Source: Parcubacteria group bacterium LiPW_30
GTDB lineage: Bacteria > Patescibacteriota > Minisyncoccia > Phycocordibacterales > VMEP01
Direction: 5' to 3'
Assembly: GCA_007375595.1 (NCBI GenBank)
Contig: VMEP01000001.1
Span: 255,883 to 319,882, forward strand
DNA: 64,000 bases
This document shows positions 12,984 through 59,960 of this stretch, one piece after another. The stretch's first letter is position 1. Every line of letters begins with the position of its first letter. The notes below the pieces were generated by a model. The model had not been told where the DNA came from and made no database searches. It worked only from the letters and a program-made list of their open reading frames with translations. The translations under genes and the position numbers were made by a program.

Positions 12984-14255
12984 ATGGACGCATTTATAAA
13001 CAAGCTCAAAATCATAATCGGCGACAGAGCTCTTTTAAAGCGCATCCTTTTTGTTATTTTCATGCTTTTTGTTTTCCGTGCTTTAGCGGCTATTCCAATC
13101 CCAGGTGTTGACCCACTTCGCTTGTCTCAGTTTTTGAGTGGCAATCAATTTTTAGGTTTACTTAACATCTTTTCTGGCGGTGGTTTGGCGACCTTGTCGA
13201 TAGTGATGCTTGGAGTTGGACCTTACATCACAGCCTCTATTATCATGCAGCTTTTGACGATAATGGTACCTAGTTTAAAACAGATGTACCACGAAGAGGG
13301 GGATTTGGGTCGTAGAAAATTTACCCAGTATTCACGCCTCATTACATTACCACTCGCTCTTATTCAGGGATTTAGTTTGCTTGTTTTGCTTGAGCGACAA
13401 GGAATCATTGAACACCTCACTCTTTTTAGTAAAGTAACAAATCTTATTGTTATTACAGGTGGTACCGTTTTGTTGATGTGGCTCGGAGAATTGATTTCAC
13501 AATATGGAATTGGCAATGGAGTTTCCCTTATTATTTTTGCCGGCATTGTCTCGAGCCTTCCTTCGAGCGTTGGGCAGTTGCTATTCACGTTTGATGTTTC
13601 TCAGATTCCACTATATCTAGCCTTTTTGGTTGCTGGCTTATTGATTGTTGCCGGCGTTGTCTTTGTTACAGAAGCCGAACGACCGTTGCCGGTGACATAC
13701 GCTAAGCGTGTTCGTGGAAGTAAGATGTTTGGTGGGGTTTCAACTTATCTACCATTACGTATTAATCAGGCTGGTGTTATTCCAATAATTTTTGCCCTCT
13801 CAATCCTTCTCTTTCCTCAAATGATTGGCGCCTTTTTGGCAACATTTAGTAATAGTATATTGCAGACTATTTCTTCATTCCTTATTTCTTTCTCTCAAAA
13901 TACTTGGGTTTATGGGATTTTCTATTTCGTTCTTGTTTTCTTATTTACTTATTTTTACACCGCGGTTACTTTTGACCCAGATTCAATCGCAACTAATCTA
14001 CAGAAAAATGGAGCATTTATTCCAGGTGTTCGCCCAGGGCAATCAACCTCTGAATATATCGCTAAGATTTTAAATCGTATTACTCTCTTTGGCGCATTAT
14101 TCCTTGGCGCTATCGCCGTTTTGCCTCTAATAATGCAAGGGTTAACTGGTATTGCAACGCTTGCAATCGGGGGAACAGCTTTGCTTATCGTTGTTTCAGT
14201 TGTTCTTGATCTCGTTAAAAAGGTTGACGCTCAGGTTTCAATGAGGGAATACTAG
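12984..14255 (+). CDS. secY: Preprotein translocase SecY
   Basis: 10-TM profile, SecY motifs; start set at ATG after rplO stop. Confidence 0.9.
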   Translation: MDAFINKLKIIIGDRALLKRILFVIFMLFVFRALAAIPIPGVDPLRLSQFLSGNQFLGLLNIFSGGGLATLSIVMLGVGPYITASIIMQLLTIMVPSLKQMYHEEGDLGRRKFTQYSRLITLPLALIQGFSLLVLLERQGIIEHLTLFSKVTNLIVITGGTVLLMWLGELISQYGIGNGVSLIIFAGIVSSLPSSVGQLLFTFDVSQIPLYLAFLVAGLLIVAGVVFVTEAERPLPVTYAKRVRGSKMFGGVSTYLPLRINQAGVIPIIFALSILLFPQMIGAFLATFSNSILQTISSFLISFSQNTWVYGIFYFVLVFLFTYFYTAVTFDPDSIATNLQKNGAFIPGVRPGQSTSEYIAKILNRITLFGALFLGAIAVLPLIMQGLTGIATLAIGGTALLIVVSVVLDLVKKVDAQVSMREY

Positions 14256-15924: not shown

Positions 15925-18675
15925 ATGGTTTTAAACTTTAACGGAGAAAGTCATGAAAAATTTGTAAATCCCGAAGAGGAGATTAATTTTTTGCGTGAAC
16001 GTCTTGCAGAAAAGGAAAAAGAAGCCTCGTTTGGTAAAGAATCGGCGCCAGTTAATCATGAAAAAGAGGTTATTAGGGAATATTCGGAAAAGCCAGCTCG
16101 GGAAATTTTGCATCACGAAAAGGTGCTGGGGGAACAAGAGGTAGAGCGTATCGTTCTTGATTTGAAGCCAGAAGAGCACGATAAACAAATGGAGGAGCTT
16201 CTAGGACTTCTTATTGAAAAAGGTGCTCGTAACACTATTTCAGTTGTGGAGAAGATGGATAATCCCCACATAACTGACGACTTTCACAGAATACTTGTTC
16301 AATATGTTAAAAGCGTAGGAAAAGTTCCAGACTTAGAAAAAGATAAACAAGTTTGGAAGGCGGTACATATGCGTCTTTATGAAATCCTTCTTCCAGAAGG
16401 AGACGCAGAAAAGCAGGCAAAAAGCTTTAAAGAAATTGTTACGATAATGGAACAGTTTTACGCTGGGATGCTTTCTGTTTCCGATGGTCGAGATAATTTT
16501 CCAGGGAAGAATTATTTTACGCTTGAGATAGCTTTGTCTAATCAAAGCAGTGAAATAGTTTTTTACGCTTCTGTTCCTGATGATAAGAGTGGTTTGTTGG
16601 AAAAACAGTTACTCGGTTTATATAAAGACGCTCGAATTAGGGAGGTAAAGGATGATTATAATATTTTTAACGAAAAGGGAGCATCTTTGGGCGCCTACGG
16701 AGCTTTCACAAAAAGTCAGGTCTATCCAATAAAAACATATGCAGATTTTGAACATGATCCACTTCCGGTAATTCTTAACGTTTTTTCTAAACTTAAAAAT
16801 AAAGGAGAGGGGGCGGCAATTCAATTTTCAGTTTCTCCTGTTGGTGATTATTTCTTGAAAAGATACGGAAGAGTGCTTGACGATTTAAAACGAGGAGTGC
16901 CAAAAGATGAAGCAACAAATATTTCGCCAACTGTCGGACAAGAGGTGGGGAGGTTTGCCAAGGAACTCATTATGGGTGTTTCTGTGCCTAAAAAAATTGA
17001 TGGGAAAGAGGTTATTGATGAAGACGCGGTAAAATATGTTTCGGAAAAAATTAGTAGCACTATTGTTAATACAAACATTCGAGTAATTGCTTCCGCAGAG
17101 ACAACCTTGCGCGCTGAAGAAATTTTAGGTGAACTACAATCGGCTTTTAATCAATTCACAGATACTAAAGGAAATGGTGTTGAGTTTAAGTCGTTAAAAC
17201 GCCACGACCTGTTGAAGCTTTTTCAAGAATTTTCTTATAGGCTATTTTCTCAAGATCATTCTTTGCCGCTCAACCTAAAAGAACTTACCACAATGTTCCA
17301 TTTTCCAGAGCAGGTTTCGTCGGCGCCACAACTAAAACAAGCCCGTTCCACGACAGCGCCTGCACCGCTTGATGCTCCAACCTACGGGACACTTCTTGGA
17401 ATAAATAAACACCGTGGAGAAAATAAGGAAATTTTTATTACCGACGAAGATCGAATGCGTCACTTTTATGTTGTCGGACAAACAGGCACTGGTAAGACCG
17501 CAATCATGAAGAACATGATTATTCAGAATATTAAAGCTGGGCACGGGGTGTGCATGATAGACCCACACGGAACCGATATTGAGGATATTTTAGGAAATAT
17601 TCCACCTGAGAGAGAAAAAGACGTTATTTATTTTGACCCAGCTTACACAGAAAGAGTGATGGGTTTGAACATGCTGGAGTATGACCAAACTCGACCAGAG
17701 CGGAAAACTTTCGTGGTTAACGAGTTGATTTCGATTTTTAATAAATTATTTGATATGAAAGTTGCTGGCGGACCAGCATTTGAACAGTACTTCAGAAACT
17801 CTGCTCTTTTGGTTATGGAACACCCAGAATCTGGCAGCACTCTTCTTGAAATTGTGCGTGTTTTGGCTGACAAATCTTTTCGTGACATGAAATTGTCTTA
17901 TTGTAAGAATCCAGTGATTACGCAGTTTTGGCAAAACGCGATTAAGACAAGCGGGGAGCAGTCGCTCGCCAACTTTGTCCCTTATATCTCAAGCAAATTT
18001 GATCCATTTTTATCAAACGATATTATGCGTCCAGTTATTGCTCAAGAAAAATCATCATTTAATTTTAGGCAAATAATGGATGAGAAAAAAATACTCTTGG
18101 TTAATTTGTCTAAAGGGAGGTTGGGAGATTTAAACGCCAATTTAATAGGGCTTATCTTGGTTGGCAAGATTCTTATTGCCGCGCTTTCTCGTGTTGATAT
18201 TGTTGGCGGAAAACCTGCTGATTTTTATTTATACATTGATGAGTTCCAAAATATAACCACTGACTCAATTTCCACAATCCTTTCAGAAGCGCGAAAATAC
18301 AGATTATCTCTAAATGTTGCCCATCAATTTATTAAACAACTTGATGAAAAAACAAAGAACGCTATTTTCGGCAACGTTGGTTCAATGGCGGTGTTTCGTG
18401 TTGGTAGTGAGGATGCAGAATTTTTAGAGAAACAACTTGCGCCAGTTTTTTCTGCAAGAGATATTATGAATTTGGACAATTATAACGCTTACGTGAAAAT
18501 GCTTATGAATGGTCAACCAGCCAGAGCTTTTAACATTGAAACGATTTCGCCAAGGAAGGGGGACGTAAATACCGCTACAAGAATTAAAGAGGCGTCTTAC
18601 CAAAAATACGGAACCCCCCGTGTAGAAATTGAGGAGCATATCGCTCAAAAGTATCGCCAAACAGGAACAGTTTAG
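15925..18675 (+). CDS. Large soluble P-loop ATPase: C-terminal VirD4/TraD/TrwB-like (type IV coupling protein family) domain with an uncharacterised ~480-aa N-terminal region
   Basis: Walker A GQTGTGKT, Walker B LYIDEF, downstream RKYR...NVAHQFIKQL resembling the T4CP R..QS..QL motif; no TM segments. Confidence 0.5.
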   Translation: MVLNFNGESHEKFVNPEEEINFLRERLAEKEKEASFGKESAPVNHEKEVIREYSEKPAREILHHEKVLGEQEVERIVLDLKPEEHDKQMEELLGLLIEKGARNTISVVEKMDNPHITDDFHRILVQYVKSVGKVPDLEKDKQVWKAVHMRLYEILLPEGDAEKQAKSFKEIVTIMEQFYAGMLSVSDGRDNFPGKNYFTLEIALSNQSSEIVFYASVPDDKSGLLEKQLLGLYKDARIREVKDDYNIFNEKGASLGAYGAFTKSQVYPIKTYADFEHDPLPVILNVFSKLKNKGEGAAIQFSVSPVGDYFLKRYGRVLDDLKRGVPKDEATNISPTVGQEVGRFAKELIMGVSVPKKIDGKEVIDEDAVKYVSEKISSTIVNTNIRVIASAETTLRAEEILGELQSAFNQFTDTKGNGVEFKSLKRHDLLKLFQEFSYRLFSQDHSLPLNLKELTTMFHFPEQVSSAPQLKQARSTTAPAPLDAPTYGTLLGINKHRGENKEIFITDEDRMRHFYVVGQTGTGKTAIMKNMIIQNIKAGHGVCMIDPHGTDIEDILGNIPPEREKDVIYFDPAYTERVMGLNMLEYDQTRPERKTFVVNELISIFNKLFDMKVAGGPAFEQYFRNSALLVMEHPESGSTLLEIVRVLADKSFRDMKLSYCKNPVITQFWQNAIKTSGEQSLANFVPYISSKFDPFLSNDIMRPVIAQEKSSFNFRQIMDEKKILLVNLSKGRLGDLNANLIGLILVGKILIAALSRVDIVGGKPADFYLYIDEFQNITTDSISTILSEARKYRLSLNVAHQFIKQLDEKTKNAIFGNVGSMAVFRVGSEDAEFLEKQLAPVFSARDIMNLDNYNAYVKMLMNGQPARAFNIETISPRKGDVNTATRIKEASYQKYGTPRVEIEEHIAQKYRQTGTV

Positions 18676-23278: not shown

Positions 23279-23329
23279 GTGTTTGTTTATTCAGTGAATT
23301 GTAGCCGAGAAGGGGGGAATAATCAATAT

Positions 23330-23700
23330 GTTTTTTAATGTTCGCCCTTAAAATGCGCGTATAATTTTTTGCTAAAAATTTACTATACTCGCCTCGCCAG
23401 GCTCCGTAATGCATTTTAAGGGCGAACATAGAGATATTAAATACAAAAAACTTTGCTGAATTTTCGCTCTGCTCGATTCGTCAATCTGCGCAAGGTATTT
23501 TAGGGGTGTATGCAGGAAATAAAATACTTAGAAATGCACGTATAATTTTCTGCTGAAAATTTACTATACTCGGCTCGTCAGCCTCCGTCTCTCAATTGCT
23601 TCACTTATCGCAATTGAGCATCGCACTGCGCCCGCCTGCGCGTACACGCGGGCAGGCAATGTTTTTAAATACAAAAAATTGGATTTTTGAAGAAGGAGGA
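23330..23700 (-). mobile_element. Cluster of two partial MITE-family copies, minus orientation
   Basis: 23341-23430 bounded by ttcgcccttaaaatgc / gcattttaagggcgaa inverted repeats; 23536-23690 is the reverse complement of modules seen at 54961-55105 (ctcaattgcgataagtgaagcaattgagagacggaggctgacgagccgag). Confidence 0.55.
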
Positions 23701-23715
23701 AGGTTTATTTTTACA

Positions 23716-23748
23716 AAAAAAAGAACAGGACCCGGAGGTCCTGTTTGT
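23716..23748 (-). terminator. Terminator for minus-strand gene 23757..24827
   Basis: acaggacccggaggtcctgt followed by a T-run on the minus strand. Confidence 0.6.
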
Positions 23749-23756
23749 CGCCAGTG

Positions 23757-24827
23757 TTACTTATCGGCGGGCGTGGTGGCTAGCCTCTTCAGGTTTTGTT
23801 CGGCTTCTTCCGTTTGCCGTTCTGCTTCCCGAATTGCCGCGAGGCGGGCGTATTCAGCCTTCCTTATTTCATACAGCTTAAGGAATTCCGCCGCCTTTGA
23901 GTTTACGAGACAGGCTTCTTCGACGGTAGTCGCTAGGCGAGTTTTACCGACAGGGGATTTGGTTGTGCGGAGTTCTGTTCGCAGAGAGATTTCTTTGAGC
24001 TTTGCCAAACATGGTTCATCAAGCTCTTCGAAACCCCAGAAACTGCTTCGCATACCATAAATATCCCACAGCAGGTCAATCTTGCCGATGGAGGACAGCA
24101 CTTCAAGCATCCAGAGTTTTGCCGAGTTGATGTTTTTGCGCATCTCGGCATTTTGCTTTGCTTTCTCTTCTGGACGGATATGCCACGACTTGATTTCTTC
24201 TCCCTTCCACTTGAAAACAAACGCTGCGAGTCGCAGTAGGAAATTGATGGCCTGTTGTTCGTTGTGGTTGGAGGCCTCTAGTCCAGATAGGTTGCGAACA
24301 GCCCCCCCTTCGACCGCGAAAAAGTTCATGAGGATTGGAAGGATTCGCCCTGAAACAAAGTCAGTGCCCCATGGGTCTCTGCTCCTGTGTTGCACGGAGA
24401 GGGAGTTCTCAATCTCGACCTTGAAGAAGTTCTGGGCGAGTACGTCAAACGCTTTGCGTGCCAACTTCTGGCGAAACCATGCTGGGTTTCCTGGTTGGCG
24501 ATTTCCGTACCTGTCGTAGCCGATGACATATCCTTTGCCTTCATCTGACTCAAGATGCCACTGGGAATAACCACGTTCCCAACCATCAGCAATGGCGAAG
24601 TAGGTTTCCAGGCGATCAGCATGGTCGTACTCTTGTTCGCCATGACTGAAACGCTCAAACCCCACATTGAAACCCTCGTGGAGCAGTCCGGCCAGCTGGT
24701 GCGTGGTGGTGGACTCTTGCCAGCAGGTTCGCCACTCGTTCCAATTACGGGGCGGGCGAATTTCGCGCACCATGAGGGGGTGTGGTAGAGCACTTACGGC
24801 ACTTACGAGATCTTCAATTTGCGACAT
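23757..24827 (-). CDS. Hypothetical 357-aa protein, GC-rich (~52%), coiled-coil C-terminus
   Basis: Start moved to internal Met (MSQIEDL) because the longer ORF overlaps tRNA-Ala; RBS AGAGAGG upstream. Confidence 0.5.
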   Translation of the reverse strand: MSQIEDLVSAVSALPHPLMVREIRPPRNWNEWRTCWQESTTTHQLAGLLHEGFNVGFERFSHGEQEYDHADRLETYFAIADGWERGYSQWHLESDEGKGYVIGYDRYGNRQPGNPAWFRQKLARKAFDVLAQNFFKVEIENSLSVQHRSRDPWGTDFVSGRILPILMNFFAVEGGAVRNLSGLEASNHNEQQAINFLLRLAAFVFKWKGEEIKSWHIRPEEKAKQNAEMRKNINSAKLWMLEVLSSIGKIDLLWDIYGMRSSFWGFEELDEPCLAKLKEISLRTELRTTKSPVGKTRLATTVEEACLVNSKAAEFLKLYEIRKAEYARLAAIREAERQTEEAEQNLKRLATTPADK

Positions 24828-24929
24828 TTTGTTGCCTCTCTTTCTTTCTTGGGTTATGCCCCGTACTGTGACGGGACGAGGTACTGCTATGCCAAATATA
24901 CCTCGGGGCTTGATTAAGTCAAACTGTTG

Positions 24930-25005
24930 TGGTGGACCATACCGGATTCGAACCGGTCGCCTCATCCATGCCATGGATGCGCTCTACCAAATGAGCTAAT
25001 GGCCC
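24930..25005 (-). tRNA. tRNA-Ala (anticodon GGC), CCA encoded
   Basis: Cloverleaf folded by hand: acceptor GGGCCAT/ATGGTCC, D-arm GCTC..GAGC, anticodon loop ATGGCAT, T-loop TTCGAAT. Confidence 0.8.
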
Positions 25006-25064
25006 CTAAAATATTTTACAGAAAAATATTCGGGCGACCATTTTCTTTAGAAAATGGTTTAGCC
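25006..25064 (+). promoter_or_regulatory. CTAAAA-hairpin-TTCGGGCGA-hairpin-TTTTAGCC motif, antisense orientation abutting the tRNA-Ala 5' end
   Basis: Read on minus strand the motif ends TTTTAG immediately before mature tRNA G1. Confidence 0.5.
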
Positions 25065-25097
25065 TTTAAATTTTGAAACACTATACCAAAACAAACA

Positions 25098-25305: not shown

Positions 25306-25451
25306 AGTTATATAGTCTAGCCTATTTTAGGGTAAATACACAAGGAGGAAGGGGAATATACCCGTTTGACCTTTCTGTGATTATCATGTAGTAGTTAGTG
25401 TTAGTAATTGTTGAATTTTCAATCAACGGGATAGAAAAGGAAAAAACGATC

Positions 25452-26861
25452 ATGCACATTTCAACTCGCGGTTTGGCTCCGGCGGTTAATTTTGCCTACA
25501 CGGTGCTCAAGGGAATTGCGCCAGATGGTGGTTTATACGTTCCGGAGAAGATTTTCCAGTTTGCCGAAGATGACATTCGTCGGCTTGCTGGACTTTCCTA
25601 TACGGAGGTTGCCAAAATTGTCATGGATCGGTTTGCTCCGGACATGGACAAAGTCGCGCTTCACGGCGCGATAGACAAGGCTTATACCCCCGACGTTTTT
25701 GCAAACGTTACCGAAAAGGATGACAATCCCATCGACATCGTCCCTGTGCGCCATCTTGGTCAAGATTTGTATCTTGCTCGGCTGAGCAATGGGCCAACTC
25801 TCGCATTCAAGGATTTGGCGTTGCAGTTGCTTGGCCACCTCTTCGAAATCGTTCTCGACGGGAAACCACTCAACGTGCTTGGGGCGACGTCGGGCGACAC
25901 GGGGTCGGCGGCTATTCATGCCATGCTCGGAAGAAAGGATATACGCGTTTTCATGCTCTCTCCGCATGGCAGGATGAGTCAATTTCAATCGGCTCAGATT
26001 TTGGGCGTCAATGACCCGATGATTCACAACATTTCGGTCAACGGTTCGTTCGACGATTGCCAAGACGTGGTGAAGGCGGTTAGCGGGGACGCTAGCTTCA
26101 GGGAGGAGTACAACATCGGCGCCGTAAACTCAATCAATTGGGCAAGGGTTGCCGCGCAGGTGGTCTACTACTTCTTTGTTTGCTCCCGCATCCGTGGTCG
26201 TGATGGTGGCCAAATTGACGTCGCCGTCCCGACAGGGAATTACGGCAACATCTATGCGGCCTGGGTTGCGAAAATGATGGGGTTGCCGATTCGTCGGCTG
26301 ATTCTCGCAACCAACGAAAACGATGTTCTGCATGAGTTTTTCACAACGGGCATTTACAGGCCCAGACTGAAGACCATCGAAACGTCGAGTCCGTCGATGG
26401 ACATCACCAAGGCGTCGAATTTCGAGCGTTACGTTTTTGACGTTTTTGGCGGCAACTCAACCAAGGTTGCAAGGCTGTGGGCGGCACTCGACAAGACGGG
26501 GCAGTTTGATTTGTCGCACAGGATGGCGAAGATTCGCGAGACAGGTATTACTTCCTGCGCAGTTCAGCAGGAACAAGTCGCCGAGACCATCAACTACGCC
26601 TTCGTGAAGTACGGCATCGTCATCGACCCCCACACGGCGGTAGCAATGCACTCGGCAATTAATACGCAGCAGTCCGGCGTGCCGATGGTCGTGATGGAGA
26701 CAGCTCAGCCCTGCAAGTTTGACCTTGCTATAAAGCAGGCGCTTGGTTTCACTGTATCGCCTCCTTCGAGCATGAAGGACCTTATGTCCACAAAGCAGTT
26801 CTTTACGCAGATGGATCCAAACGTCGAAGCGACCAAGGAATTCATTCGCGCGCGGGCATGA
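25452..26861 (+). CDS. thrC: Threonine synthase
   Basis: PLP-enzyme motifs GPTLAFKD and ATSGDTGSAA; GC ~55-60%, well above background. Confidence 0.85.
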   Translation: MHISTRGLAPAVNFAYTVLKGIAPDGGLYVPEKIFQFAEDDIRRLAGLSYTEVAKIVMDRFAPDMDKVALHGAIDKAYTPDVFANVTEKDDNPIDIVPVRHLGQDLYLARLSNGPTLAFKDLALQLLGHLFEIVLDGKPLNVLGATSGDTGSAAIHAMLGRKDIRVFMLSPHGRMSQFQSAQILGVNDPMIHNISVNGSFDDCQDVVKAVSGDASFREEYNIGAVNSINWARVAAQVVYYFFVCSRIRGRDGGQIDVAVPTGNYGNIYAAWVAKMMGLPIRRLILATNENDVLHEFFTTGIYRPRLKTIETSSPSMDITKASNFERYVFDVFGGNSTKVARLWAALDKTGQFDLSHRMAKIRETGITSCAVQQEQVAETINYAFVKYGIVIDPHTAVAMHSAINTQQSGVPMVVMETAQPCKFDLAIKQALGFTVSPPSSMKDLMSTKQFFTQMDPNVEATKEFIRARA

Positions 26862-26883: not shown

Positions 26884-26985
26884 AAACCTAGTCTTCGGGC
26901 TAGGTTTTTTGTTTGGTGAGGCGTTGATTTCATAACTAAAATTTTTGAATTAATAAAACCCGCCGGAGCGGGTTTTTTGTGACTT
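26884..26985. terminator. Two successive intrinsic terminator hairpins
   Basis: aaaacctagtcttcgggctaggttttttg and aaaacccgccggagcgggttttttg. Confidence 0.65.
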
Positions 26986-26989
26986 CTTT

Positions 26990-27493
26990 TTACCATGGCG
27001 TTTTATTTCCAGGATATTCTGCGATTGCAAACTCGAGGCCATCTATCCCGTAATCAGCGAGACGGACACACCCACCCATGAAGCAAAACTGCTTGGCTTG
27101 GAGAATGTCGAGAGCCACGGTTGTTTCCATGCCCTGGAAAAGATTCCAGAGGTAGTGGGATTTCACCCTTTCGTCCACAACAGGTTCACCTCGTCGCTGG
27201 ATGTTTACAAGCCAGAAGATAGTGAAGACGGTCGGGGCGAGGAGGTCGCTCTTGTACTTCTTGTAGAGGCGGTATTCGGTACGGTTTGCGACGATACCGG
27301 CCAGAAGATACTTGATTACGGCAAGGAGCGGGTTCCGGTGATGTTTCTCAAGGTTACCCCGTACTTGTTTCTTCTGAATTGATTCGAAGAGCTTGATGAA
27401 CGGCCTTAGTGGGCGAAATCGCGCAATCTTGATGGCGTACTGCCCAATCAAAATTACACAGCGGGTAGAACCACACGCGAAATCAAGGTACAT
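26990..27493 (-). CDS. Hypothetical 167-aa protein, possibly small kinase-like fold
   Basis: AIKIAR (beta-3 Lys-like) and VRLADYG (DFG-like) motifs; GC-rich; weak inference. Confidence 0.3.
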   Translation of the reverse strand: MYLDFACGSTRCVILIGQYAIKIARFRPLRPFIKLFESIQKKQVRGNLEKHHRNPLLAVIKYLLAGIVANRTEYRLYKKYKSDLLAPTVFTIFWLVNIQRRGEPVVDERVKSHYLWNLFQGMETTVALDILQAKQFCFMGGCVRLADYGIDGLEFAIAEYPGNKTPW

Positions 27494-27621
27494 GATGCCT
27501 CCCGTTCCTGTTGGTTGAAGAGACTACCTATGTTTACTCGCTACACTTCATCATCTTTGGGGCTGGAAGTCAAGGATAAAAAACAAACCCATGGAAACCT
27601 GTGCTTGTGTTTTTGTGGGGT

Positions 27622-27683
27622 GGCTAAAACATCTCTACAAAAGAGATGTTCGCCCGAATATTTTGTAATTGCAAAATATTTTA
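27622..27683 (-). promoter_or_regulatory. Fifth copy of the TTCGGGCGA hairpin motif, sense orientation ahead of gene 27705
   Basis: ggctaaaaCATCTCTacaaaAGAGATGttcgcccgaa tattttgtaattgcaaaatat tttag | gagggg. Confidence 0.5.
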
Positions 27684-27704
27684 GGAGGGGTAGGATTGGG
27701 GGAC

Positions 27705-28049
27705 ATGGAGAAGGTAATACTAAGTGTGTTTGTTGGGGTACTTTTGGTTCCACAAATTGCTTTTGCTCACCCTGGTAGGACAGACTCTTCTGGTTGTCAC
27801 ACGTGTAAAACAAATTGTTCCAATTGGGGTCTTTCGTATGGAGAATATCATTGTCATAATTCAAAAGGAGTTTCTCAGCCAAAGGAACCAATAAAAAGTA
27901 CGTATGGTGAAAATGGAACAGGTTACGTTTCTAAAGCTCCTGAATATAAGACACAGAAAGTTAATACGGTGAAAAGTGTAAATACACAACAAAACAAAAA
28001 AGTAGAAGAAAAAGGAAATTGGTTTAGTAGATTATTAGGGTGGAGGTAA
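27705..28049 (+). CDS. Secreted small protein with His/Cys metal-binding-like motif (HPGRTDSSGCH...GEYHCH) and C-terminal WFSRLLGW tail
   Basis: Signal peptide MEKVILSVFVGVLLVPQIAFA; RBS AGGAGGGG; start set at ATG (track ORF begins at an upstream TTG). Confidence 0.5.
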   Translation: MEKVILSVFVGVLLVPQIAFAHPGRTDSSGCHTCKTNCSNWGLSYGEYHCHNSKGVSQPKEPIKSTYGENGTGYVSKAPEYKTQKVNTVKSVNTQQNKKVEEKGNWFSRLLGWR

Positions 28050-28058
28050 TAAAAGGAG

Positions 28059-29042
28059 ATGAAGAAAATATTTATTGCATCATTATTAATATTTACACCA
28101 GTTCTGTTTTTAAGTGCAAGCTCTATTAAGGGTGTTTCGCTTGGTGAGTTTGCCAGCTGTAGTTATTATTTAATAGAGGACAGTTCTGGGGACTATACAC
28201 TCGCAGAGTGGTACGGTGGTATTACTCCATACGAAGGAGATGTTTTATATGGGGAGTTACATTCCTATGGATTTAAGGATTTGTACAATATTACAAGGGA
28301 TAATTCTACTCGTGTGTGGATTGATGACTACTTATTGTCCGAGGACAGGGCAACGGAAAAGCTAATAGATGAATGTGGTTGGGACAGGGAAATTTTTAAT
28401 TATTTTGGTAACACGTCCTATTACCCTTCCTCTTATACACAACCACCGCGCGTATCACCGCCTACAATTTCTTGTCCTGTTAATTCAACTTTAAATTCTT
28501 CTGATTCAAAATGTTATTGTAACTCTGGGTATTCTATAAATTCAAATGGAAATGCTTGTGTAGTAAATATGCCCACTTGTACAGCCAATTCGTCTAGGAG
28601 GGCAGATAATCAATGTTATTGTGACACAAGTTTTACGCGTGTTGGAGATAGGTGTATTAGTTACACAGAAAAGTGTCAATTGACTTATGGGTCAAATTCT
28701 TATGGAACTGAAACAAATTGTTATTGTTCAAACGGTTATATTTTTAATAGTGCTGGCAATTACTGTGTTCCTAAGCCCGTAACAGTTACTACTAATCCGG
28801 TACCTAATAACGTAAGTGCTAATAAATTAACCACAGACTTAACAGAACCTGCTGTATCAAAAAAAGAAATAAAAACAATCACAACAAAAACAAATATTCT
28901 TAAAACAAAAACGATAAAGTCACAATTATCTAGTACAACTATTTCTGCGAAAGCGTCGACAACTATTGAAACACCTAATTCTAAAACAAAAATAGATCCA
29001 AAAATATCATGGTTCAATAGATTGTTTGGTTGGTTTAAATAG
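28059..29042 (+). CDS. Secreted Cys-repeat protein (three C-x-C-x2-GY-x3-N/S-x-G-N-x-C-V repeats, Thr/Lys-rich linker, C-terminal SWFNRLFGWFK)
   Basis: Signal peptide; repeats CYCNSGYSINSNGNACV / CYCDTSFTRVGDRCI / CYCSNGYIFNSAGNYCV. Confidence 0.6.
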   Translation: MKKIFIASLLIFTPVLFLSASSIKGVSLGEFASCSYYLIEDSSGDYTLAEWYGGITPYEGDVLYGELHSYGFKDLYNITRDNSTRVWIDDYLLSEDRATEKLIDECGWDREIFNYFGNTSYYPSSYTQPPRVSPPTISCPVNSTLNSSDSKCYCNSGYSINSNGNACVVNMPTCTANSSRRADNQCYCDTSFTRVGDRCISYTEKCQLTYGSNSYGTETNCYCSNGYIFNSAGNYCVPKPVTVTTNPVPNNVSANKLTTDLTEPAVSKKEIKTITTKTNILKTKTIKSQLSSTTISAKASTTIETPNSKTKIDPKISWFNRLFGWFK

Positions 29043-29087
29043 TTTATGTGATTGTGTTTTATCGTAAGAATGGAGTCAAAATAAAAA

Positions 29088-29696
29088 ATGACAAGTGATT
29101 TAAATACCATTGTGGGACTTTACAGGGAAAAAGTTTTTCAAATTTTAAAAGTGTCATTTATCCTAGAGTACTTAGAGGAATATAATTATGAATTTTCTGT
29201 AAAATACAGAGAACAGAATGCATCATTAATAACAGTGATTGAATCTATTGATTTTTGTCACACGATGCTTTTATCACGTATTTTTGACGAGGATAACAAA
29301 TCTTTCTCAGTTAAAAATATACTTAAAAAACTAAATAAGAATTATAACAATGGTGTAATTTCTGAGATTACGGAGTTAGAGCTTAAGGGGACTTTAAAAA
29401 ATCTTAGTATGTGGAGGGGAAATGTTTTTGCTCATGATAATTTTAATGTTTCAATGTCTTCAGAGCATTACGATATGTACCCTTCTCATACGATAGATTT
29501 TGAAACATTACATCAATATCTTATCGATACTCTTATAACATACGAATTTGATTTGATTAATAATGATAAATCAGTTGAATATTTAACTAATGTTTTTAAT
29601 GAGGAGTTAGAAGCTAAGAAAAAACAATGGGAAGGTGATATTAATTTAGTATTAAAGTTTATTGGTAATTATAGAGTTCAAAATCTATTAAAGTAA
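29088..29696 (+). CDS. Hypothetical protein in AT-rich island; possible HEPN-like Rx5H motif (WRGNVFAHD)
   Basis: ~28% GC; motif-level inference only. Confidence 0.35.
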   Translation: MTSDLNTIVGLYREKVFQILKVSFILEYLEEYNYEFSVKYREQNASLITVIESIDFCHTMLLSRIFDEDNKSFSVKNILKKLNKNYNNGVISEITELELKGTLKNLSMWRGNVFAHDNFNVSMSSEHYDMYPSHTIDFETLHQYLIDTLITYEFDLINNDKSVEYLTNVFNEELEAKKKQWEGDINLVLKFIGNYRVQNLLK

Positions 29697-29830
29697 TTTA
29701 TTGCTCGCTAAATTTTGTGTTGTTTGAACGTAAGGGTTTTCATCAGTTTAGTTAAATTATGGGTTTCGGTTGCATAAACACTCTAGAACTGTAAGTATTA
29801 ACGTGTTAGGATATTTGTGATTTTATAACC

Positions 29831-30241
29831 ATGTCAAAGCATAAAGGAATATGGGAGTATGTAAAAATTAGTTCTTCGGAATACTACTATTCTGAAATAC
29901 AACCAGAAGGAATAAATTATTTTCTTCGAGCTGCAACAGCAAAAATTCTATGGGTGACTTTTTGTTACATACTGGTTTTAAAGATGATCCCGCTAACTAA
30001 CTTTATCCTTTTGAACGCCTCGGTTCTTCTTGCGGGAAGCGCGTTTATTTTCTTTTGGGAACAGGTTGTAAAAGATCATGCTCCAAAATGGTGTGACGAT
30101 TTTGTAACTGGAAAGATATTTTTTGAAGTTGACATATCTTCATTAAACAAGTATATTTTCTACCTCTTTATAGCAAACCTACTTATGTTCCTTTTCCCTG
30201 GAACTAAATTAGGATTAACAACATCTTATGACAAAAAATAG
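29831..30241 (+). CDS. Hypothetical membrane protein
   Basis: Three predicted TM segments; AT-rich. Confidence 0.4.
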   Translation: MSKHKGIWEYVKISSSEYYYSEIQPEGINYFLRAATAKILWVTFCYILVLKMIPLTNFILLNASVLLAGSAFIFFWEQVVKDHAPKWCDDFVTGKIFFEVDISSLNKYIFYLFIANLLMFLFPGTKLGLTTSYDKK

Positions 30242-30872
30242 TCTTACAACTAGTATTATATTGTTTATTTTGGCAGTATCATTGCTCTTCTTTGCAATAA
30301 AGAATAGTAGCAAAGAGGATAGTAAAACTAATATATCCATCGAGACCATAAAGGAAGAAGTTATTCCGTATAAAGCAAAAGATTCGATGAGCAAAGTTTT
30401 AGTTGTGAAAGATTTTAAGAATTCCTCAATTTCCCACAGCCCGACAGATACTTTTAAAAAAACACTAGAGGTCAACGGGACCATCGTTGGTGGTTATATA
30501 TACATTAAGGCCGATGTTGACAACAGGGCCCTTACTAGTTTTGATGATATATATGTAAAACTCATAGAGTCTTCCCATGGGTTGTATAAAGAATATGGGG
30601 GACATTTAATACAAAGCCAAAGTCTTGACACCCCTAAAAATGATAAACAAACCGAATTTTTATACGAACTTTCGTCTATAAAATATAAAAAAAGTTTTAC
30701 CGATTCTGACAAAGAGGTACTTTCTGGTAACTGGCTCGCTATTTTAAATGATTCTACAACTAAGAAAATTTTGGGGTTCTCCTCAACTTCTCGAAATGGG
30801 GATATGCAAGAGATGTATATTTATTATAAATGTTTAGATAACACCGATTGTTCGATTAGTATTTCCCAGTGA
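30228..30872 (+). CDS. Hypothetical N-terminally anchored extracytoplasmic protein
   Basis: Single N-terminal TM then Ser/Lys-rich domain. Confidence 0.4.
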   Translation: MTKNSLTTSIILFILAVSLLFFAIKNSSKEDSKTNISIETIKEEVIPYKAKDSMSKVLVVKDFKNSSISHSPTDTFKKTLEVNGTIVGGYIYIKADVDNRALTSFDDIYVKLIESSHGLYKEYGGHLIQSQSLDTPKNDKQTEFLYELSSIKYKKSFTDSDKEVLSGNWLAILNDSTTKKILGFSSTSRNGDMQEMYIYYKCLDNTDCSISISQ

Positions 30873-30916
30873 TTTAAGGTTATTTTTTTATTTAAAATAT
30901 GTAAATAGAACCAAAT

Positions 30917-31228
30917 GTGGTTAGTTACTTTCTGGTTATTACGTCTGGATTTGCTGTTGTGTGGGGTTTTCGGGCTTTTAGTGATAGTGGTGAAAAGAAG
31001 ATATCTGAGTTCGAATATGCCGGGTTCAGTACTTTTTGGGGAAGTTTAGTTTTCATTTTATTTATCTGGATATTAAAAAACAAATCAGATATTTTGCTTG
31101 GGGCACTTTCTTATCCTTTTACGGCTACGCCCACATTGTTTTTACTCGGAGGTATTACTGGAGCTTCCACTGGGTGGATTTTTAAACATACGCATGAGTT
31201 GCGGACTTGGTTGCAAAGTAAACTATGA
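30917..31228 (+). CDS. Hypothetical small membrane protein
   Basis: Hydrophobic segments; weak. Confidence 0.3.
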   Translation: MVSYFLVITSGFAVVWGFRAFSDSGEKKISEFEYAGFSTFWGSLVFILFIWILKNKSDILLGALSYPFTATPTLFLLGGITGASTGWIFKHTHELRTWLQSKL

Positions 31229-31364
31229 CAAGGGAGATTGACTATAAATAACTTTTTGCCGTCGCAAAAAGTTTTGAGGATTAGTTCGATGTGGGAATTG
31301 GTCACAAATCTTTTGTTGCTACAAAAGTTCGCGACCCCGCCTCGCGCCGTCGCGCTCCGGCTTT

Positions 31365-31447
31365 CAATTCCCCACACAAGACATGCAGATGTCTTGCTCC
31401 ATCTCCACAAACAAAAATGGCTCACCGAAAGGTGAGCTCATTTTTGA
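31365..31447. repeat. Inverted partial copy of the tmRNA 3' end next to a bidirectional terminator hairpin
   Basis: ttcaattcccc...tccatctccacaa is the reverse complement of tmRNA 3' segments tgtggagatgg / ggggaattgaa; terminator ggctcaccgaaaggtgagcc. Confidence 0.5.
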
Positions 31448-31452
31448 TAATT

Positions 31453-31849
31453 GTGGAGATGGGGGGAATTGAACCCCCGTGCAGATGATTTTCAGGCGCG
31501 GGTCTACGAAGCTTAGTTTGTTTTTTTGTTTTCAGCACGAAAGGTTTAAAGCAAACAAAATCCTTTCACACTTATCCTCTATGTTTTTTAGTTAGTATCC
31601 CCGAGAAGTGAAATACGCTTAGTCCGGAAATATAACGCCCGTTCACATCTACCAGACTGCAATGTGACGAACGACCTTAGCTTATTTTATTAAGCGAAAG
31701 CGACGGCGAAGCTGTTTGCCTTAAAATAAGGAGAAACAGATAAGCCCTGTGCAGTTTTGTTTGCACTTATGTTTTGTGACGGTTTAACAAGTCATCACAG
31801 CTTGGCTTGCGCGCGCGAGAATGGTCAGCTGTCTAAGCAAATCATCCCC
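31453..31849 (-). ncRNA. ssrA: tmRNA (ssrA)
   Basis: Minus-strand 5' GGGGATG pairs with 3' CATCTCC; T-arm GGGGGTTCAATTCCCCC; candidate tag reading frame GCA AAC AGC TTC GCC GTC GCT TTC GCT TAA TAA; smpB adjacent. Confidence 0.75.
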
Positions 31850-31910
31850 CTAAAACATTTTTGTTGCAAAAATGTTCGGGCGACCATTTTCTTTAGAAAA
31901 TGGTTTAGCC
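31850..31910 (+). promoter_or_regulatory. CTAAAA-hairpin-TTCGGGCGA-hairpin-TTTTAGCC motif abutting the tmRNA 5' end (antisense as written)
   Basis: 45-nt core identical to the copy at 25019-25064. Confidence 0.5.
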
Positions 31911-31913
31911 AAT

Positions 31914-32183
31914 TTAATGGCACACCCTATTTTGTTTATATTTCTTTAAAATCTTTTGTTTGAATCTAGCCGACCACAGACTTTTTAGGAATCTCTCTCT
32001 GTTGAACGCTTCACTTTTATCATCTAATTTTTCAGAATAAATGATTTCAAACGGTCGGCGTTTTACAGTCGCGATAACCTTGCCTTGATTGTGGTCTTTG
32101 ATTCTGCGTTCAAGATTTTCTGTACATCCTACATACAGTTTCTCGTCTTTTAAACTGAGTAGAATATAAACAAAATAGGGCAT
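31914..32183 (-). CDS. GIY-YIG domain nuclease (UPF0213/YhbQ-like)
   Basis: YFVYILLS..KLYVGCT..L.RRI.DHN motif set. Confidence 0.75.
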   Translation of the reverse strand: MPYFVYILLSLKDEKLYVGCTENLERRIKDHNQGKVIATVKRRPFEIIYSEKLDDKSEAFNRERFLKSLWSARFKQKILKKYKQNRVCH

Positions 32184-39959: not shown

Positions 39960-40165
39960 AAATATCTTACTTGCTGTTGCTCGTAAAAATTTAAAACGGA
40001 GACGGTGGTTCGGCCACGAATATTTTACTCGCCGTCGCTCGTAAAATTTCTTGACCACGGCTCGCGACCTGTTCTGCTGAACAGGTGCCCGCTCCGCCTT
40101 TCGAATCCCACCGTCTTTACGAAAAATATAGTCACAAAATGCTTCACATTTTGTTCCTTGTTTTA
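39960..40165. repeat. Degenerate repeats derived from the tRNA-Ser 3' end
   Basis: aacggagacggtgg at 40002 and 40165; ttcgaatcccaccgtct at 40097 is an inverted copy of the T-arm/acceptor; direct repeats ttact[ct]gc[ct]gt[ct]gctcgtaaaa at 39969 and 40025. Confidence 0.5.
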
Positions 40166-54940: not shown

Positions 54941-55127
54941 CCAAAATACCCCCAAAAAACATTGCGCAGTGCGACTGGCTCAATTGCGATAAGTGAAGCA
55001 ATTGAGAGACGGAGGCTGACGAGCCGAGTCGGGGTAGCGCAAATTTCTAGCAAGAAATTATGCGTGACCGAGCATAGTAAATTTTTAGCAAAAAATTATA
55101 CGCGTTTTTTGGGGGTATTTTAAAAAA
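54941..55127. mobile_element. MITE-like element, long copy; perfect 18-bp terminal inverted repeats
   Basis: ccaaaatacccccaaaaaac ... gttttttgggggtattttaa; internal modules shared with 1116, 23536-23690 (reverse complement), 59842-59937, 57740-57800. Confidence 0.65.
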
Positions 55128-57719: not shown

Positions 57720-57858
57720 GGGCTTATGGAGTAAGACCGGGCCGGAGCGTGGCGACGCGAGGCGGGGTCGCAGAATTTTTCAGCAGAAAAATATCTGTGA
57801 CGAAGTGGTACTCCTTGTGGTTTAACCACAAAGTTTGTTAAGGTAGTTGTTGAAAGAA
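57720..57858. mobile_element. MITE-family fragment inserted at the tRNA-Met 5' end, flanked by a direct repeat of the tRNA start
   Basis: Direct repeat aattata(t)agcgggatg at 57703 and 57856; internal ccggagcgtggcgacgcgaggcggggtcgcagaatttttcagcagaaaaatat matches family modules. Confidence 0.45.
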
Positions 57859-58209: not shown

Positions 58210-58325
58210 ACTTGAGTGCCTTGCGGTGGGACTTGAAGCCCGGAGCGATGTTTTTGTTTGAGCGTAGCGAAAGGCAAAAACCGCGAGGGCGGGCTGGGCG
58301 ATTTTTCAGTCAGGAAAAATACGAC
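58210..58325. repeat. GC-rich MITE-family fragment
   Basis: gggcgatttttcagtcaggaaaaatacgac resembles the aatttttcagcagaaaa core. Confidence 0.35.
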
Positions 58326-58462
58326 TAGCCAAGTCCAATTAGTATTTCTTTTTTGGTTTTTTTACAATTAAAATAACCCACTTGTCTTAAAGGTAAAATG
58401 GGTATTAAATTAAGCTAAATTTATCTCCCAGGAAGAGATTATGAAAATTACAATTACTCTAA

Positions 58463-59795: not shown

Positions 59796-59960
59796 CTGGG
59801 TTGTAACCAGTAAATAATTTTACTGGTGTACGGGATTGAAAGCCGGAGGCAGACGTGCCGAGGCGGGGTAGCGCAACCGGAGGCAGACGTGCCGAGGCGG
59901 GGTAGCGCAAAAATTTAGCAAAATTTTATGCGTGACCAATCCCGGACAACGGCTCTGGGT
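59779..59960. mobile_element. 137-bp MITE-family insert bounded by a 23-bp direct repeat of the tRNA-Thr 3' end
   Basis: aatcccggacaacggctctgggt at 59779-59801 and 59938-59960; insert has tandem 34-bp repeat ccggaggcagacgtgccgaggcggggtagcgcaa x2 plus aaatttagcaaaattttatgcgtgacc. Confidence 0.6.

Follow-up and report, generated by a model that had tools for sequence, protein, structure and literature searches.

A strain-variable HEPN-gene island beside a structured tRNA/tmRNA 3'-linked element in a Parcubacterium

The region at the 3' end of the transfer-messenger RNA (tmRNA) gene ssrA of the groundwater bacterium Parcubacteria group bacterium LiPW_30 was analysed within a 64-kb stretch of contig VMEP01000001.1 (64,000 nucleotides, hereafter the window). 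The analysis pointed to two things lying side by side, namely a variable island that carries a gene for a divergent HEPN-like protein and a separate resident structured element, here called E; this was considered the best explanation overall, with a probability of roughly 0.7. The original prediction for positions 29088-31452 had read the interval as a small AT-rich defence island, with an inverted piece of the tmRNA gene as the remnant of its attachment (att) site. E is the more important result of the two, being a covariation-supported element that is linked to the 3' ends of tRNA and tmRNA genes (at least 16 isotypes), occurs in at least two phyla and edges strain-variable DNA. The island is of interest as a hot spot in ultra-small Parcubacteria, a group for which little is known of defence against phages.

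Strain-variable interval and inverted fragment at the tmRNA 3' end

Relatives for comparison were obtained by scanning species-representative genomes with an SmpB query, which gave the loci L002 (SmpB 100% identity) and L003 (97%). By blastn they match the window at 88-98% identity over ftsH, smpB, ssrA, infC and beyond, while positions 26911-31329 have no counterpart in either of them; thrC is additionally missing in L003. In this comparison of ssrA flanks, which had been suggested as a check, the interval is not core content: the DNA of 26911-31329 is accessory and strain-variable, and the variable region exceeds the interval first flagged. The predicted position was correct, as ARAGORN and Rfam both show the flagged interval to adjoin the tmRNA 3' end (31451), and the four predicted open reading frames (ORFs) of 202, 136, 214 and 103 aa are present on the plus strand within 29088-31228. 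A GC content of about 28% had been claimed for the interval; the first ORF comes near to it (26.9%) but the whole of 29088-31452 does not (33.1%, compared with 39.9% for the window). Presence/absence polymorphism among relatives and atypical composition, the features by which membership of an island is recognised, were thus both found. The features that carry the argument at this end of the gene are as follows.

31451..31849, minus: tmRNA gene (ssrA), by ARAGORN and Rfam RF00023 (130 bits)
31413..31447, no strand: bidirectional intrinsic-terminator hairpin separating the tmRNA 3' end from the inverted copy, with its stem (31419-31438) predicted on both strands
31399..31410, minus: inverted copy of the tmRNA acceptor 3' strand and trailer, the minus strand reading TTGTGGAGATGG; 12/12 complementary to 31451-31462
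31377..31396, minus: hairpin A, 20 nt, which splits the inverted copy; sequence variable and pairing kept in relatives
31297..31373, minus: core of E, matched by covariance model R1 with 89.2 bits (E-value 1.5e-24)
31288..31300, minus: degenerate direct copy of the tmRNA T-loop/T-stem 3' segment (CAATTCCCACATC), equal to the 3' strand of helix P1, which is present in the minimum free energy fold
31250..31273, no strand: hairpin AACTTTTTGC/GCAAAAAGTT after the last island ORF, terminator-like and resembling a stray hairpin-C unit

The cargo at the equivalent site of the relatives was then compared. L002 carries a PIN-like protein and a SocA_Panacea pair, and L003 carries SoFic (PADLOC E-value 1.6e-101), the same SocA_Panacea pair and duplicated DsrE genes. 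As the relatives have known defence or toxin-antitoxin genes at one site, the interval is a hypervariable hot spot for such genes, and the stretch from tmRNA to tRNA-Ala/thrC is a defence/toxin hot spot in Parcubacteria. The predicted small defence island therefore stood as regards the variability of the site and the defence genes of its relatives; the expected association through PADLOC did not appear, as PADLOC, PHROGs and NCBIfam gave no match for any of the four island proteins.

Williams is said to have described, in 2002 and 2003, genomic islands integrated at tRNA and tmRNA genes. The window island resembles these in its tmRNA 3' location, strain variability, odd composition and defence-type cargo, and differs in having neither an integrase nor a distal repeat. 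No recombinase or integrase domain was detected in any ORF of 26911-31329 with Pfam, PHROGs and NCBIfam, and no recombinase was seen in any of the three versions of the site (window, L002 and L003). Even when 3 mismatches were allowed, the tmRNA 3' 18-mer matched only ssrA itself in the window; the extra direct tmRNA copy is just the 13-nt degenerate arm of E at 31288-31300. As the island lacks both an integrase and a direct repeat at its far end, its integration at ssrA is not demonstrated, and its cargo was probably exchanged through recombination in or beside the conserved flanks and not by an island-encoded integrase.

The inverted tmRNA copy of the original prediction is real. The plus strand reads CCATCTCCACAA at 31399-31410, a perfect complement to the last 12 nt of the tmRNA gene; as the gene terminates in ...CCATCTCCACAA, CCA is not encoded. 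A further part, TTCAATTCCCC (31363-31373), corresponds to the tmRNA T-loop and T-stem, and hairpin A lies between the two. The arms of this hairpin show compensatory changes, being CAAGACAT/ATGTCTTG in the window, TAAGACAT/ATGTCTTA in L002 and GCGAGCAAA/TTTGCTCGC in L003, and the inverted copy tracks the tmRNA end, with ACAA/TTGT in the window versus ACCA/TGGT in L003. A block of high identity with the relatives (93-98%) spans the tmRNA, the terminator and the inverted fragment and ends at 31329/31330. The fragment is not the att remnant of the island, because it lies inside a block conserved in relatives with different cargo and because it is one piece, the 5' arm, of the resident element E, whose multiple structured copies follow many tRNA genes. 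Two other identities were rejected. A second tRNA-like gene is supported by neither Rfam nor ARAGORN on the plus strand, which also folds worse. A primer-binding site of retroviral type for mature tmRNA does not fit, as the trailer matched by the copy is the genomic ACAA and not CCA.

It is very unlikely that a mobile defence island integrated site-specifically at the ssrA 3' end and left the fragment as its att site, and as regards the fragment this explanation is already largely refuted. The tmRNA 3' ends do serve as integration sites in this group, as seen at the locus L077, and the window island is variable and deviates in composition. Against it stand the missing recombinase between 26911 and 31329, the missing second 18-mer in the window, the inverted and proximal position of the fragment where a direct and distal one would be looked for, its place in a block common to L002 and L003 whose cargo differs, and the equivalent arrangement behind many tRNAs without any island.

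The locus L077 provides a genuine tmRNA island from these bacteria for comparison. There a 7.4-kb island was inserted between the tmRNA and a pre-existing block of terminator, E and repeat, leaving the 12-nt repeat CATCTCCACATC. As the island split the tmRNA from this block, E is resident at L077 and is not the scar of that island. In the bona fide island (L077 10466-18420) the gene for a large serine recombinase (535 aa) overlaps the tmRNA 3' end, and the cargo comprises an ABC-3C conflict system (DUF2326, MC6, CTD10) and a LOOT RNA (Rfam RF03000, 79.8 bits).

Structure, copies and distribution of E

Read along the tmRNA strand, the ssrA-linked copy of E has the order GTGGAGATGG, a hairpin, GTGGGGAATTGAAAGCCGGAGC, a second hairpin, GCGAGGCGGGGTCGCG, a third hairpin, GTGACC and the degenerate direct T-loop/T-stem copy. 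Its core consists of the arm antisense to the T-loop/T-stem (P1 5' strand), P2 with a CGGA/GAG internal loop, hairpin B, GGGGTCG, and hairpin C with a bulged A and a conserved G·U, followed by GTGACC. The fold of the tRNA-sense strand reached -53.9 kcal/mol (z -5.3) against -40.7 kcal/mol for the opposite strand. A consensus was derived by RNAalifold from a MAFFT alignment of 19 sequences, and covariance model R1 was built from it. Compensatory double changes were found in 12 of the 18 pairs of this alignment and, when 43 hits were aligned, in 17 of 18, with none of 500 shuffles reaching the observed score. In the 43-sequence alignment 96.8% of the cells are paired versus 33-49% with slid partners, a percentage inflated by the fitting of that alignment to the model. 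The G·U is kept at one position in 33 of 38 sequences, and hairpin C keeps its bulged A. E is therefore an element with a three-helix core of about 80 nt, conserved in structure and strand-specific.

No match on the E core (31297-31373) or its arms was returned by cmscan against Rfam 15, even at E-values up to 10. The sole Rfam overlap with the locus was a chance-level rivX (31390-31460; 14.5 bits against a gathering threshold of 100, E-value 1), and only tmRNA and tRNAs exceeded their gathering thresholds in the window. A full-text literature search found no earlier description, and the family is apparently undescribed. Four known classes were considered and set aside: a group I or group II intron remnant, as the core is too small and has none of the motifs conserved in these introns; a standard kink-turn at the CGGA/GAG loop, as the pair next to it is of Watson-Crick type and covaries; a TnpB/IscB guide RNA, as there is no such gene nearby and no Rfam match; and a classical tyrosine-integrase attP arm, in which hairpin covariation with a fixed G·U is unexpected.

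In the window R1 finds nine copies of E. The genes for tRNA-Ser, tRNA-Asp and tRNA-Thr are each followed by a copy whose arms match their own tRNA. Besides the copy at ssrA these are as follows.

40009..40110, minus: 55 nt downstream of tRNA-Ser, with a 17-nt inverted and a 13-nt direct copy of the tRNA 3' end
59830..59940, plus: 34 nt downstream of tRNA-Thr(ggt), flanked by the perfect 22-nt direct repeat ATCCCGGACAACGGCTCTGGGT
58227..58333, plus: 66 nt downstream of tRNA-Asp (R1)
57729..57805, plus: upstream of tRNA-Met (R1)
54996..55072, plus: between protein genes, with a closing stem AAAATACCCCCAAAAAAC/GTTTTTTGGGGGTATTTT unrelated to any tRNA
23354..23601, minus: two weaker copies resembling E, at the distal edge of the 1.6-kb insert that adjoins the tRNA-Ala 3' end and is not in L002/L003
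1126..1192, plus: weak E-like copy (24.8 bits)

The tRNA-Thr copy has an internal 34-nt tandem duplication (59864-59897, AACCGGAGGCAGACGTGCCGAGGCGGGGTAGCGC), which another assembly of the locus (L111 1-110) lacks; the duplication is either real microvariation or an assembly artefact.

The distribution of E extends well outside the window. R1 detected 37 copies in 80 Parcubacteria loci, and about a dozen lineages have one directly 3' of the tmRNA. In metagenome contigs the core pattern was found in at least 120 stretches, of which 80 listed loci were scored with R1; all 80 gave hits, 107 in total. Among the 86 assessable metagenome hits 61 (71%) lie no more than 400 nt downstream of a same-strand tRNA, representing 16 isotypes, whereas a rough estimate of the chance expectation for such placement is below 1%. 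The GC content of these loci ranges from 31% to 73%. Besides Parcubacteria, E was found in Elusimicrobiota, on at least the 64%-GC contig L157, which was assigned from the named homologues of a neighbouring protein; the phyla with E are thus two or more. In viral contigs the pattern matched 25 times, close to the number estimated by hand for chance, and none of these matches scores with R1.

The linkage to tRNA genes is also seen in the repeats. GTGAC is followed, in 56 copies linked to tRNAs, by a direct repeat that begins at one fixed T-loop position (CGAWT or CAAWT). Its length is typically 19-20 nt, reaching to the discriminator; sometimes it extends into identical flank (53 nt at most, L029) and sometimes it diverges at once. 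In L151 and L145 the in-gene and distal tRNA 3' copies differ beyond the discriminator, which is expected if the unit would bring its own tRNA 3' end. Units also occur in series. Three to four mutually identical tandem units of 134 nt stand behind a single tRNA in L155 (9571-9939), four E cores follow the tmRNA in L003 with a 155-aa ORF between the second and third, one ORF lies between two identical copies in L145, and a 271-aa ORF lies between tRNA-Gln and the terminator-E-repeat block in L157; the ORFs of L003, L145 and L157 resemble cassettes. A tandem array of three to four units downstream of a single tRNA was likewise observed on the metagenome contig L163 (7124-8329).

Possible mechanisms of E

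The mechanism put forward as the most likely, and only tentatively, is that E is a miniature, non-autonomous, recombinase-less integration module. Its parts, in the tRNA sense, are the terminator hairpin, the antisense copy of the tRNA or tmRNA 3' end, the three-helix core, GTGAC(C) and the direct copy of the tRNA 3' end. When single-stranded, the antisense and sense arms may fold into a mimic of the T-arm/acceptor duplex. Strand exchange at the T-loop would be carried out by a recombinase acting in trans, and would insert the unit there, in some cases together with a cassette, and restore the tRNA 3' end. The T-loop-anchored direct repeats of the tRNA 3' segment resemble the attL/attR pairs of islands integrated at tRNA and tmRNA genes. 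The units are just about 130-250 bp, and classical attP arms have neither the extra inverted target copy nor the covarying structured core of E. A recombination module of this kind would be a new route by which integrase-less reduced genomes gain cassettes and possibly a retargetable insertion tool.

Folded single-stranded recombination sites are known from integron attC and from the attP(+) hairpin of CTX phage. E resembles these in keeping structure while its sequence varies, in the G·U, the bulged base and the terminal loop of variable length, in the two inverted target-like arms that could fold into a mimic of the target duplex, and in tandem units and single-ORF cassettes between copies. 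It differs in its target, which would be the tRNA T-loop and not attI or dif. The R''/R' boxes of attC are RYYYAAC/GTTRRRY, and inspection of alignment A2 found no such boxes in E, whose conserved ends are GGGGTCGCG...GTGACC. Tyrosine recombinases are not enriched near the copies of E. Short repeats of the REP/REPIN, MITE and CIME types share with E the small size, multiple intergenic copies, hairpin formation, absence of an enzyme and a copy number that varies among close relatives. The repeats of E (19-53 nt, one end fixed in the T-loop) are unlike short target-site duplications, 71% of its copies are tRNA-adjacent, and its core has several helices with a conserved internal loop. E has multiple copies and inverted arms. 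The loci examined, 1.7 Mb in all, yielded no transposase, and no RAYT was found near the copies.

Several observations weigh against an integration module. Two Pfam surveys of adjacent ORFs found no enrichment of recombinase, transposase or reverse transcriptase on either side of E. The genes beside E in other lineages are mostly housekeeping genes, and their standing after E in most lineages fits a vertically inherited cis-acting RNA equally well. The near-identical cores behind different tRNAs may reflect gene conversion and not recent transposition. No true empty site for E was recovered, the search for that of the tRNA-Thr copy yielding just a contig that begins inside E. The results obtained with these tools fit a function at the DNA level or at the RNA level, and the inflated pairing percentage given above belongs with these points.

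The close rival, possible but given somewhat less weight than the integration module, is that E is a cis-acting RNA co-transcribed with the tRNA or tmRNA, a 3'-trailer whose closing helix mimics the acceptor/T-arm minihelix. Its role could lie in 3'-end processing, termination, insulation or stability, or it could give rise to a stable small RNA through tRNA-processing enzymes; it would then be a new widespread class of RNA tied to tRNA maturation in candidate phyla. Such an RNA agrees with the strand-specific structure and the conserved G·U and bulged A, with the orientation of all nine window copies along the upstream gene, and with the position 3' of the tmRNA being kept across genera of just 60-65% SmpB identity. 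The housekeeping neighbours without recombinase enrichment and the CCA at the end of the distal copy in L145, L151 and L068 point the same way. It is contradicted by the strong terminator that usually lies between the tRNA and E, and by perfect direct repeats of 19-53 nt that include flanking DNA; such repeats, the identical tandem units and the differing copy numbers of near-identical genomes all resemble the outcome of insertion or duplication. Copies away from tRNAs with unrelated closing stems also speak against it, and the presence in two phyla suggests transfer.

The integration module could be carried further, to a self-contained and retargetable unit in which the arms around a conserved protein-binding core mimic the target. 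Very small units and single-gene cassettes would then be directed, with the aid of a host-encoded enzyme, to the T-loop of almost any gene for a tRNA or tmRNA. This extension is doubtful; if true, it would mean an integron-like or guide-like cassette system across Patescibacteria and Elusimicrobiota, with hot spots of the HEPN type as its products.

It was also considered, and judged rather unlikely, that E acts as an exchange point, with cassettes such as the HEPN segment swapped within the E core in an array like an integron without integrase. In the roughly 20 kb common to the window and L002/L003 three indels abut copies of E: the tmRNA island; the site after the tRNA-Ser copy, where L003 has a second E and the window a 159-aa ORF; and the 1.6-kb insert by tRNA-Ala, which ends in two E-like copies. 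The 98% identity between the window and L002 stops exactly at the base of hairpin C (31329/31330), which is the breakpoint of the tmRNA island and lies inside E, and past it each has a different hairpin C, GTGACC and cargo. The ORFs between copies in L003 and L145 fit such exchange as well. On the other side, there is no second E on the thrC side of the window island, the breakpoint is explicable by homologous recombination or gene conversion between copies of E, the attC consensus boxes are absent on inspection of the alignment, and no integron-type integrase was seen. A role in cassette exchange is compatible with either the integration module or the RNA; the weights given to these three are rough, overlapping and not exclusive.

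Public assemblies break at E loci, for which the presence of E at these places offers a practical explanation. The insert by tRNA-Ala (23327-24930) has about 50% GC, starts directly after the CCA end and contains one ORF of about 355-405 aa without a Pfam, PHROG or NCBIfam match.

The HEPN-like protein and neighbouring genes

The genes of the variable interval and the nuclease gene beyond ssrA were annotated as follows.

29088..29696, plus: 202-aa divergent HEPN_AbiU2-family protein (Pfam, homologue alignment and AlphaFold), key residues R110, H116 and D67
29831..30241, plus: 136-aa orphan protein with about three hydrophobic segments (hydropathy)
30228..30872, plus: 214-aa orphan protein with an N-terminal anchor or signal peptide only (hydropathy)
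30917..31228, plus: 103-aa orphan small membrane protein with at least one hydrophobic segment above threshold (hydropathy)
26911..29087, no strand: rest of the strain-variable interval (blastn against L002/L003)
within 26911..29087, minus: 167-aa ORF (phrog_4301)
within 26911..29087: 126-aa YHYH-domain secreted protein and 327-aa Cys-rich secreted protein
31914..32183, minus: 89-aa stand-alone GIY-YIG nuclease gene between smpB and ssrA (Pfam E-value 1.9e-17)

The 202-aa ORF contains the predicted motif WRGNVFAHD (Rx5H), and the guess that it encodes a HEPN protein was borne out, since the motif aligns to HEPN_AbiU2 and the predicted fold matches HEPN proteins. The four proteins had been called orphans, which holds at close range, as the 202-aa protein matched only itself among 5.8 billion clusters, but this protein has nine remote homologues at 23-38% identity; the family comprises 10 representative clusters at E-values up to 1e-3 among 1.84 billion. 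D67, W109, R110 and H116 (R110-x5-H116) are invariant in the nine aligned members. Eight of these nine match PF18734 (HEPN_AbiU2) with a best E-value of 4e-15, and the homologue P0003 has an unmarked precomputed match to it. The window protein scores 22.6 bits (E-value 8e-5), below the gathering threshold of 26.8, and its membership of PF18734 is therefore transitive, through its relatives. In the AlphaFold model (pTM 0.78, core helices confident) the motif stands at the end of helix 96-115, and the four-helix up-down bundle with the motif at the end of helix 3, as expected of the HEPN fold, is present. The protein has no hydrophobic segment. These features agree with the published definition of HEPN, which includes the Rx4-6H motif (PMC3710099, Anantharaman et al. 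2013).

The protein adds a small divergent subfamily to HEPN_AbiU2, the family of AbiU2 from the Lactococcus abortive-infection system AbiU. It differs from that family in its sub-threshold score when taken alone and in the glycine after the arginine, and from the AbiU2 genes listed in PMC3710099 in having no Sel1-repeat or restriction-modification neighbour and no PADLOC match. From the conservation of its motif the protein is predicted to be a metal-independent RNase that would use R110 and H116, and it is a candidate effector of the abortive-infection or toxin type. The most likely function of the gene is predicted to be phage-triggered or stress-triggered RNA cleavage.

Some points lower the confidence in such an effector. 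Besides the sub-threshold Pfam score, the arginine is followed by glycine (G111, then N112) where HEPN families are usually polar, and the relatives have N, A or G there; the acidic residue upstream, D67, is invariant. PADLOC gives no match for the protein and no antitoxin or partner is recognisable; PADLOC-DB 2.0 likewise has none for the homologues P0003, P0004 and P0008, while it matched the SoFic of L003. Foldseek against PDB returned only non-specific helical matches, and a sequence profile search of PDB returned nothing. The three small ORFs could be spurious or unrelated.

The prediction of three membrane proteins held roughly, for the 136-aa and 103-aa proteins, and the 214-aa protein has only its N-terminal anchor or signal. 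These three ORFs have no Pfam, PADLOC, PHROG or NCBIfam match and no tblastn match in 111 loci. As for the homologues of the HEPN protein, P0006 has no neighbours in common with the window, the contig with P0003 is 1 kb long and P0004 is without a genomic record. The membrane ORFs do not accompany the HEPN gene as conserved partners. That all the island genes are non-functional AT-rich filler, decaying or spurious ORFs with the HEPN-like motif as an inactive relic, is hardly probable. Three of the four ORFs match nothing, and the HEPN ORF is a singleton cluster below the Pfam threshold, which would suit this explanation. The ORFs are nevertheless long, tightly packed and on one strand, four residues (D67, W109, R110 and H116) are kept across sequences of 23-38% identity, and AlphaFold is confident in the core helices of the 202-aa protein.

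The GIY-YIG gene on the other side of ssrA was found as predicted. It is in L003 and cleanly absent from L002 by blastn (68 bp versus 338 bp in the window), so that this gene, too, is polymorphic in its presence; it may encode a mobile nuclease of the homing type.

A sequence of about 37 nt with the palindrome CCATTTTCTAAAGAAAATGG occurs at 31881-31917 and 25035-25069 (94.6% identity), just upstream of ssrA and tRNA-Ala, and recurs in L003; it may be a common promoter or operator for stable-RNA genes. The threonine synthase gene (25398-26861) has 53% GC in a genome of 40% GC, is present in L002 (88% identity) and missing in L003, and was probably horizontally acquired, an unusual metabolic cargo for a Parcubacterium. 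L003 contains an exact duplicate of a DsrE-like gene (13547-13870 and 16155-16478), and a small secreted/membrane family with the N-terminus GDMEKVI... occurs in L003 (11510-11977 and 12977-13414) and in the window (27669-28049), which together suggests repeated local duplication and recombination. The secreted proteins at 28059-29042 (Cys-rich, EGF-like) and 27669-28049 (YHYH) have near-identical C-terminal tails, WFNRLFGWFK and WFSRLLGWR, which may serve as a sorting or anchoring signal.

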